The notes: generated from the letters alone by a model not told the origin. Counted from the stretch's first letter, positions 3,001-3,307 are shown. The stretch: DNA of 12,329 nucleotides from Escherichia coli (GCF_003334315.1 NZ_QOWR01000084.1), one strand, 5' to 3'. Translations and numbers: made by a program.

Positions 3001-3307
3001 TACGATACAGGCGAACGTCCACGCCGCCGTACTCTTCCATCTGATAGCGCCGATAATCACGCCCCGGCGCTTCCAGTCGCACTTTCGCCTCTTCACTGCT
3101 GCTAAAACTGCTGTCAGCAAGCAAAAAGAATGTTCCCCCGGCAGGCGGCGCATAGTTGCTGGAAGGAAGCGAATCATCAGCATTAGCAAGCCCTGTTCCC
3201 ACAAGAGACAGGGACAAGCACGCTGCTATCGCGCCAGAAAATTTAAACGATAAATGCCAATGAAATTGGGATTGGAATCGTTGGGTATCCATCGGGTGTC
3301 CTTCCAT
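71..3307 (-). pseudogene. yfaS: Alpha-2-macroglobulin family protein (YfaS-type), N-terminal ~1078 codons; frame ends at TAA 71-73, well short of the ~1500 aa I recall for this family (not measured here), so probably a disrupted gene whose remainder lies beyond the window start
   Basis: Seen: 1078-codon minus-strand ORF with N-terminal signal sequence (hydrophobic [18 protein letters not shown]). It contains [15 protein letters not shown], which resembles the conserved F-x-D-R-x-x-Y-R-P-G motif of alpha-2-macroglobulin MG domains. A second in-frame TAA lies at 59-61, after which the frame reopens. An SD-like GAAGGA sits 6 nt upstream of the second Met (ATG 3290-3292), so the true start may be 3292 rather than 3307. 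Memory: position next to yfaT/yfaA/gyrA matches the E. coli yfaS locus, annotated as a pseudogene in K-12. Confidence 0.6.

Follow-up and report, generated by a model that had tools for sequence, protein, structure and literature searches.

Our analysis of a 12,329-nucleotide stretch of Escherichia coli DNA (the window, with positions counted from its first letter) indicates with high probability that residues 1–38 of YfaS are a Sec signal peptide cut after Ala-Asn-Ala, and that mature YfaS is a soluble periplasmic macroglobulin of type II which is probably held by YfaA. The basis of this reading is a combination of sequence, context rules, conservation and start-codon selection, from which we infer that the leader is cut and that YfaS is not lipidated; a tether through YfaA in E. 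coli is inferred from homology with MagD and MagB of Pseudomonas. The lipobox-like tetrapeptide IAAC in the same leader is almost certainly a chance match within an ordinary secretion signal. The literature already states that the type II class is without a lipobox, and in this respect there is nothing unusual about the YfaS leader, a signal peptidase I signal in a protein class already known. Judging by the literature searched, what is new is that the start codon lies inside yfaT, where selection has kept it in all 81 genomes examined, and that the start given in RefSeq strips the export signal from the protein.

In the pathway that we propose, YfaS would be exported via Sec and would be cut by signal peptidase I after Ala36-Asn37-Ala38, with Cys25, presumably a plain residue of the hydrophobic core, leaving with the cleaved leader and receiving no diacylglycerol modification. 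The soluble mature protein, predicted to begin DDSLPSS, would be an alpha-2-macroglobulin of the thioester-less kind (type II), probably bound non-covalently to the inner membrane through YfaA, a single-pass protein, as suggested by analogy with its homologue MagB. The E. coli type II macroglobulin would thus be placed in the soluble periplasm, probably tethered, and not lipid-anchored like YfhM, a placement which agrees with the Mag model of Pseudomonas and lifts the apparent ambiguity of the leader.

The yfaS locus, its leader and the predicted cleavage site

The window covers the yfaS-yfaT-yfaA-gyrA-ubiG-yfaL region of E. coli (Table 1), and the segment was found in 5,392 of 5,426 complete E. 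coli genomes. An apparent truncation of yfaL, listed as a 960-aa open reading frame, was rejected; the gene runs off the end of the window. The yfaS copy in the window is an IS-disrupted pseudogene, with an open reading frame at 71..3307 on the minus strand and its stop at 71-73. Strain ES3 has the same junction, with an IS421-family transposase annotated there, and is the only one among the 5,426 genomes to share the whole junction, while K-12-type genomes carry an internal stop in yfaS instead. Since yfaS is a pseudogene both in the window and in K-12-type genomes, the question of localization concerns the intact alleles of other strains. Intact E. coli YfaS has 1534 residues, only two of which are Cys (25 and 1189), and the CxEQ thioester motif is absent from this full-length protein. 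The literature searched yielded no experiments on E. coli YfaS, and a phmmer search against the PDB sequences gave no solved structure for YfaS, similarity being too low to link any.

Table 1. Coordinates of features in the window (strand – is the complement of the strand presented).
Feature	Position	Strand	Remarks
End of IS4-like IS421 insertion element interrupting yfaS	1..74	.	window departs from intact allele below about position 75
yfaS as in the window	71..3292	-	1073 codons and stop, truncated; identical through residue 1073 to intact ET76 YfaS (1534 aa), then divergent
Predicted mature N-terminus, Asp-Asp (DDSLPSSNY...)	3173..3178	-	mature start [DE]D-S-[VL]-x-x-S-x-Y...FFLLADSSF conserved
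c-region Ala-Asn-Ala, residues 36-38, predicted signal peptidase I site	3179..3187	-	cut predicted between 3179 and 3178
Signal peptide hydrophobic core, residues 18-35 (F18-L35)	3188..3241	-	18 residues, mean Kyte-Doolittle 1.68
GTG, RefSeq/PGAP start, judged mis-called	3200..3202	-	no Shine-Dalgarno sequence, no signal peptide
Lipobox-like IAAC, residues 22-25	3218..3229	-	judged a decoy; four-residue rule only
yfaT (DUF1175 / Pfam MagC)	3226..3849	-	own leader, predicted to be cut before E
Out-of-frame overlap of yfaT 3' end and yfaS 5' end, 67 nt	3226..3292	-	yfaT stop TAG 3228..3226
Signal peptide n-region, residues 1-17 (R5, K17)	3242..3292	-	from translation; coded entirely inside yfaT in another frame
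yfaS start codon ATG, Met1 of MDTQRF...	3290..3292	-	in the yfaS frame in 81/81 genomes; made by yfaT codons cgA-TGg
yfaT Arg codon CGA giving the A of the yfaS ATG	3292..3294	-	CGA in 81/81 loci
Shine-Dalgarno sequence GGAAGGA for ATG 3292	3299..3305	-	also yfaT codons Trp-Lys-Asp; 6-nt spacing, -5.5 kcal/mol
yfaA (DUF2138, MagB homologue), probable membrane tether	3846..5534	-	N-terminal transmembrane helix; two genes upstream of yfaS

An earlier note on this DNA had pointed to a lipobox-like IAAC and to an ANA followed by DD in the YfaS N-terminus. Translation from ATG 3292 bears out the presence of both and every coordinate given for them, with the Cys25 codon (TGC) at 3220..3218 on the minus strand and the interval 3179-3292 corresponding exactly to the 38-codon leader from the ATG to Ala38. 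The leader has the parts of a Sec signal peptide. Its n-region is positively charged, with R5 and K17 against D2, and is unusually long at 17 residues; the hydropathy of its core lies within the range of the control leaders (mean Kyte-Doolittle 1.57-2.29), and the length of the core agrees with the roughly 10-20 residues expected of a Sec core. The junction between ANA and DD has small, neutral residues at -3 and -1, has no Pro at +1 and is conserved among orthologues, as is typical of a signal peptidase I site.

Conservation was assessed in 80 species-representative genomes with a relative of yfaS which, together with the window, gave 81 loci and 73 distinct leaders. Querying a protein database with residues 1-369 gave for the most part fragments, the N-termini of which were set by the gene caller (MGTG..., MRLEAPG..., MSLSLVG...), and the comparison was therefore based on DNA loci. 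The -1 position is Ala in 72 of the 73 distinct leaders and the -3 position is V, A, G, L, S or T in equally many (72/73), with D or E at +1 in 68 and D at +2 in 68; all of these residues stand in register with the conserved mature motif ...S-x-Y...FFLLADSSF. In the comparative sense, conservation of the AxA site in this register is far beyond chance. Taken together, a decoy lipobox and a conserved ANA site suggest that YfaS is released into the periplasm rather than anchored by lipid.

The same data bear on whether the leader is cleaved at all. If residues 18-35 formed an uncleaved signal-anchor helix, YfaS would be held in the inner membrane by its own N-terminus; the core, 18 residues long and moderately hydrophobic, would suit such a role, some signal anchors likewise have a long n-region, and MagD, the P. 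aeruginosa relative, fractionates with the inner membrane. Small residues at -3/-1 in 72 of 73 leaders and acidic residues at +1/+2 in 68 of 73, all in register, are however the signature of a peptidase site in use, the helix is interrupted ahead of the site by Gly residues at -8 and -6, and MagD loses its membrane location once MagB or the whole operon is removed (PMC3735191, PMC5764988). We regard an uncleaved leader as hardly probable.

Even less credible, to the point of being scarcely conceivable, is that the n-region beginning MDT-R-R is a Tat signal and that YfaS is exported folded. This hypothesis was prompted by the MDT-RR motif, as M-D-T-R-R stands at the conserved start in most orthologues and a long leader is a trait shared with Tat substrates. 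Motif, spacing and profile searches all went against it, and it was rejected. E. coli has Q-R in place of R-R (T-Q-R-F-Q-S), which does not conform to S/T-R-R-x-F-L-K, the residues that follow RR elsewhere (I/S-Q-S/P-Q) do not fit RRxFLK, and the hydrophobic core lies 12-30 residues downstream of RR. Neither Pfam, searched with the E. coli leader only (the first 80 YfaS residues, which gave no match), nor NCBIfam, searched with the leaders of E. coli and three orthologues, returned a Tat family such as Pfam TAT_signal or NCBIfam TIGR01409 at E<=10. The arginine pair is moreover accounted for by yfaT, whose codons Pro-Asp-Asp/Glu yield it in the other frame.

The lipobox-like tetrapeptide and its context

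The earlier note had set the lipoprotein lipobox and the signal peptidase I site side by side as alternatives, and it is the latter that context rules, hydropathy and conservation favor. Were YfaS a true lipoprotein, Lgt would modify Cys25, LspA would cut between IAA and Cys to leave a mature Cys-Leu-Ser, and the Lol system would send the protein to the outer membrane, there being no Asp at +2. To this possibility we assign only a small probability. Its strongest support is that the pentapeptide AIAAC is identical to the genuine lipobox of Pal and that Cys25 is fixed in the E. coli genomes sampled. IAAC, with Cys at position 25, matches [LVI][ASTVI][GAS]C within the first ~35 residues. The Cys also lies within the usual span of positions 15-35, an Arg (R5) is found among the first seven residues, and the sister family YfhM is a lipoprotein (PMC3328433).

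The surroundings of the tetrapeptide point the other way. Hydropathy in the YfaS leader, averaged over windows of 7 to 11 residues, peaks at residues 25-26, which places Cys25 in mid-core and not at the core end, and ten further hydrophobic residues (mean Kyte-Doolittle 1.63) follow it before the core ends in the conserved AxA/DD. Between K17 and Cys25 there are just 7 uncharged residues, as against 13-19 ahead of the Cys in six E. coli lipoprotein controls (Lpp, Pal, AcrA, RcsF, OsmB and BamD). In those controls a polar stretch of 10 residues comes after the Cys; the Pal leader was verified, while the other five serve as illustrations only. The YfaS lipobox does not close the hydrophobic region in the manner of the full lipoprotein patterns, with at least six uncharged residues before the four-residue box, nor do polar residues follow the Cys. 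Pal itself, which shares AIAAC with YfaS, illustrates the difference, with 13 uncharged residues before its Cys and SSNKN after it, compared with 7 before and 10 hydrophobic residues after in YfaS.

Full lipoprotein patterns gave the same result. The PROSITE pattern PS00013/PS51257, quoted like the DOLOP rules from secondary sources, reads {DERK}(6)-[LIVMFWSTAG](2)-[LIVMFYSTAGCQ]-[AGS]-C, and the YfaS leader fails a pattern of this PS00013 type with K17 standing at -8. It likewise fails the G+LPPv3 pattern (PMC13068155), long-n-region variant included, again with K17 at -8. Both patterns are passed by 7 control lipoproteins. Lgt acts on Cys at the interface of membrane and periplasm (PMC8048626), and Cys25, lying seven residues into a core of 18, would be in the wrong place for it. 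When the core was shuffled with its one Cys and its composition kept, the four-residue pattern was matched by chance in 7-9% of shuffles.

As a crude control, the N-termini of four YfaS-family proteins (E. coli and three orthologues) were scanned against NCBIfam, and no lipoprotein family and no Tat model was matched at E<=10, whereas the same scan of the YfhM N-terminus gave 15 weak matches, of which 12 (models for 11 lipoprotein families) place it at the N-terminal end of a lipoprotein model. The verified leader of YfhM (ECAM) reads MKKLRVAACMLMLALAGC-DNND, and its N-terminus, MKKLRVAACMLMLALAGC-D, supports the claim of the earlier note that YfhM is a membrane-anchored lipoprotein. It also contains a decoy, VAAC at Cys9, ahead of the real LAGC at Cys18. 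That a true lipoprotein carries such a decoy shows that a four-residue lipobox match is by itself a poor criterion. YfhM, the type I, pbpC-linked lipoprotein, and YfaS are both large periplasmic proteins of the macroglobulin fold in the same genome, and each has a four-residue lipobox match inside its hydrophobic core (VAAC in YfhM, IAAC in YfaS). YfhM alone of the two has a genuine second lipobox, LAGC, that ends a short leader and is followed by polar residues with Asp at +2, and it has the CxEQ thioester; YfaS has neither CxEQ nor a terminal lipobox, and its core ends in ANA/DD.

Among the orthologues, Cys25 does not show the invariance expected of a lipidated Cys. A Cys occurs within the last 26 leader residues in only 32 of the 73 distinct leaders, at varying distances from the cleavage site. 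The four-residue lipobox is found in 4 of the 73 (IAAC in three Escherichia and LAAC in one Enterobacillus) and in none of the other 69, and the full PROSITE-type lipoprotein pattern is found in 0/73. In Escherichia sp. E1V33, which is ~95% identical, Tyr (TAC) replaces Cys25 while ANA/DD and the remainder of the leader are unchanged. Escherichia sp. MOD1-EC7003 has changed 6 of the 13 residues after the Cys and has kept a hydrophobic core ending in V-K-A/DD, the pattern that selection for a signal peptidase I leader would predict. Cys25 and an identical leader are present in 8 of the 8 E. coli genomes sampled (segment identity 97.9-100%), and Cys25 is kept in 2 of 3 other Escherichia species. 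With Cys25 invariant among the sampled E. coli, this lineage taken by itself favors neither reading and leaves room for a lineage-specific use of the residue.

A start codon inside yfaT

The signal peptide depends upon the start codon, for which annotation differs. In 8 of the 8 PGAP records inspected the RefSeq/PGAP start is GTG 3202 (1504 aa), and the Sakai record places it at GTG 3082, while a start at ATG 3292 gives the 1534-aa protein. Were GTG 3202 right, YfaS would have neither a signal peptide nor Cys25, and the apparent leader would be a shadow cast by yfaT and the spacer. Besides its use in the PGAP records, this start avoids a 67-nt gene overlap, and the leader segment is partly forced by the C-terminus of YfaT/MagC ([IV]YRLxFLxR*), which is nearly invariant across the 80 species-representative genomes and the window. 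The yfaS-frame sequence MEGHPMDT[QR]R... is indeed an out-of-frame shadow of that C-terminus and, taken alone, would allow for an accidental ATG. In spite of these points, we conclude that ATG 3292 is very probably the real start and the RefSeq GTG 3202 wrong, the probability left to the latter being very small. Evidence for this comes from conservation of a rare CGA codon, avoidance of stops, the Shine-Dalgarno sequence, the lack of alternative starts and the overlaps in Cronobacter and a metagenomic homologue.

Predicted ribosome binding separates the candidates. The anti-Shine-Dalgarno duplex of ATG 3292 (-5.5 kcal/mol) is comparable to those of yfaA (-5.4) and gyrA (-6.3), whereas GTG 3202 (+0.6) and the upstream ATG 3307 (+0.7 kcal/mol) have none, which leaves ATG 3292 as the only N-terminal candidate with a good Shine-Dalgarno sequence. 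The Lys codon that forms part of this sequence is AAG in 48 of 50 distinct zones.

Codon usage in yfaT suggests that the frame of yfaS is under selection as well. The yfaS ATG arises from CGA followed by TGG (the second Trp codon) in 81 of 81 loci, although among the Arg codons within the 180 yfaT codons ahead of it CGA makes up only 3.3% in Enterobacterales and 0.9% in Pseudomonas and others; the first ATG (3307), by comparison, is conserved in only 77 of 81. Where a final T in a yfaT codon would put a stop into the yfaS frame, T is never present (0 of 217, made up of 0/55 in Enterobacterales and 0/162 elsewhere), whereas 40% and 21%, respectively, of the other codons of the zone end in T. 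The Fisher p values for this T-avoidance, ~1e-10 and ~3e-15, are indicative only, the sites being phylogenetically non-independent. A further idea, that the Escherichia leader is a decaying remnant which has lost an ATG of its own, was rejected on the grounds that other genera have the overlapped start too and that the ATG is under selection everywhere.

There is also little room for a start elsewhere. In E. coli only 15 codons lie between the yfaT stop and the cleavage site, with no ATG among them, and in two Pseudomonas species the corresponding stretch is only 44 nt. Superficieibacter electus has no ATG, GTG or TTG between the conserved ATG and the cleavage site and hence no alternative start codon. 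GTG 3202 is itself not conserved in Escherichia sp. MOD1-EC7003, in which the core and V-K-A/DD persist, and a periplasmic macroglobulin needs an export signal, which a start at GTG 3202 would remove together with Cys25. ATG 3292, which was also the start codon read in the earlier note, is thus upheld by the Shine-Dalgarno sequence, the conservation of CGA and the avoidance of stops.

With the start at ATG 3292, the first 22 codons of the YfaS leader lie inside yfaT in another frame. An overlapped start of this kind is common to Escherichia, Cronobacter, Superficieibacter, Entomohabitans, two Pseudomonas species and a distant metagenomic homologue. The annotation of Cronobacter shows an overlap of the same 67 nt; in the metagenomic homologue the two genes share 82 nt, and the MagC stop falls within the stretch that codes for the hydrophobic core. 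As in other out-of-frame overlapping operon pairs, the downstream start and its Shine-Dalgarno sequence lie within the upstream coding sequence and both frames are constrained. The overlap of yfaT and yfaS is however long (67 nt, or 82 nt in the metagenomic homologue) relative to the common 1 or 4 nt and, unlike the common case, codes for a functional part of a signal peptide, and this conserved out-of-frame start is a small, clean example of dual coding.

The RefSeq start has practical consequences in that localization predictions made on entries with this start would wrongly give a cytoplasmic YfaS, and expression constructs derived from them would come without the leader. We lean, with some reserve, toward the broader proposal that the start of gamma-proteobacterial YfaS/MagD is in general buried in yfaT/magC, with an n-region (MDT-R/Q-R...) dual-coded with the near-invariant YfaT C-terminus, an overlap of at least 67 nt and selection on both frames. 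If so, annotated starts would be wrong, namely GTG 3202 in E. coli RefSeq and, probably, those that give Pseudomonas MagD a short leader, and the long overlap may couple the synthesis of YfaT and YfaS.

Family, operon and probable membrane tether

The E. coli operon runs yfaA (DUF2138), yfaT (DUF1175, Pfam 'MagC'), yfaS, yfaQ and yfaP, and the gene order yfaA-yfaT-yfaS was also found in Pseudomonas, Serratia, Yersinia and a metagenomic contig. Relatives of YfaS carry the Pfam domains MG2, A2M and A2M_BRD. The lack of CxEQ together with the mag-type operon identifies YfaS as a type II bacterial macroglobulin, like MagD of P. aeruginosa.

MagD (PA4489) and YfaS belong to the same family and share an operon context in which DUF2138/MagB and DUF1175/MagC precede the macroglobulin. 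Both are without the CxEQ thioester motif, and both have a signal peptide followed by a mature start [DE]D-S-V/L-x-x-S-x-Y. MagD is periplasmic and has a signal peptide but neither a Cys nor a lipobox (PMC3735191, PMC5764988), and at the inner membrane of P. aeruginosa it is anchored through MagB, a single-pass protein (PMC5764988). The two proteins differ in that MagD is reported to be without any Cys while two are found in E. coli YfaS, Cys25 of the leader and Cys1189. A further difference is that in E. coli no ATG follows the yfaT stop, so that yfaT contains the coding sequence for the entire n-region and for part of the core.

YfaA is 45-46% identical to the product of the gene upstream of magC in Pseudomonas loci, which is consistent with the tethering role suggested above. 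The neighboring proteins YfaT, YfaQ and YfaP have ordinary leaders of the AxS/AxA type without a lipobox. The leader of YfaT contains three Cys residues.

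Cysteines in YfaS and in related leaders

A Cys was present in 32 of the 73 distinct orthologue leaders, and in none of the 73 did the recurring Cys lie in a full lipobox context. Many unrelated orthologue leaders (L006-L082, upstream of position 2500) carried this Cys close to where the hydrophobic core begins on its N-terminal side, with contexts such as LRLCSK, SRLCLPL, HFLLCLGL, and IRYCFSL. YfhM/ECAM, encoded at the E. coli yfhM locus (N-terminus, L089:13640-13693), is a true lipoprotein and carries a second four-residue lipobox match within its leader, VAAC (Cys9), upstream of the real LAGC (Cys18). 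A review-type statement terms the operon partners "lipoproteins" (PMC3328433); in contrast, none of the three E. coli proteins YfaT, YfaQ, and YfaP has a lipobox, including the YfaT leader with its three Cys.

The sole Cys of mature E. coli YfaS (intact allele, L001) is residue 1189 (MNLPCKTLLKG), which lies outside any CxEQ motif, whereas MagD reportedly has no Cys at all.

Annotated starts and the yfaT 3' end

Public records differ in the yfaS start, with three in use (ATG 3292, GTG 3202, and GTG 3082), and the signal peptide is lost with either GTG.

Features of the yfaA-yfaT-yfaS region and the insertion element (window coordinates)
Feature	Position	Strand	Remark
Insertion element, IS4-like, IS421 family, terminal sequence	1-74		opens the window; junction near 74/75
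yfaS start, Sakai record (GTG)	3080-3082	minus	1464 aa
yfaS start, PGAP (GTG)	3200-3202	minus	1504 aa, without leader
yfaS start, ATG	3292	minus	1534 aa
yfaT final ~27 codons	3226-3307	minus	near-invariant
YfaT leader, 19 residues, then E	3793-3849	minus	three Cys; no lipobox
yfaA/yfaT overlap	3846-3849	minus	4 nt

The near-invariance of the yfaT 3' end extends across Escherichia, Serratia, Yersinia, and Pseudomonas (L003-L082, around position 2400-2500). Rare codons recur there, namely CGA (81 of 81), ATA (42 of 50 distinct zones), and CCC (49 of 50 and 48 of 50 distinct zones), and they set the yfaS-frame reading M-D-T-[QR]-R. Whereas yfaT and yfaS overlap by 67 nt, the yfaA-yfaT overlap is the usual ATGA-type coupling.

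Disruption of yfaS in E. coli

The insertion element breaks yfaS after codon 1073. Among 5,426 complete E. coli genomes, only strain ES3 matched the full element/yfaS junction, and strain PI12 had the junction in common with the window from position 53 onward. The annotation of the K-12-type chromosome NZ_CP152465.1 lists yfaS as a pseudogene interrupted by an internal stop (L090:1049-5563), a lesion different from the insertion in the window; yfaS has therefore been inactivated independently in separate E. coli lineages.
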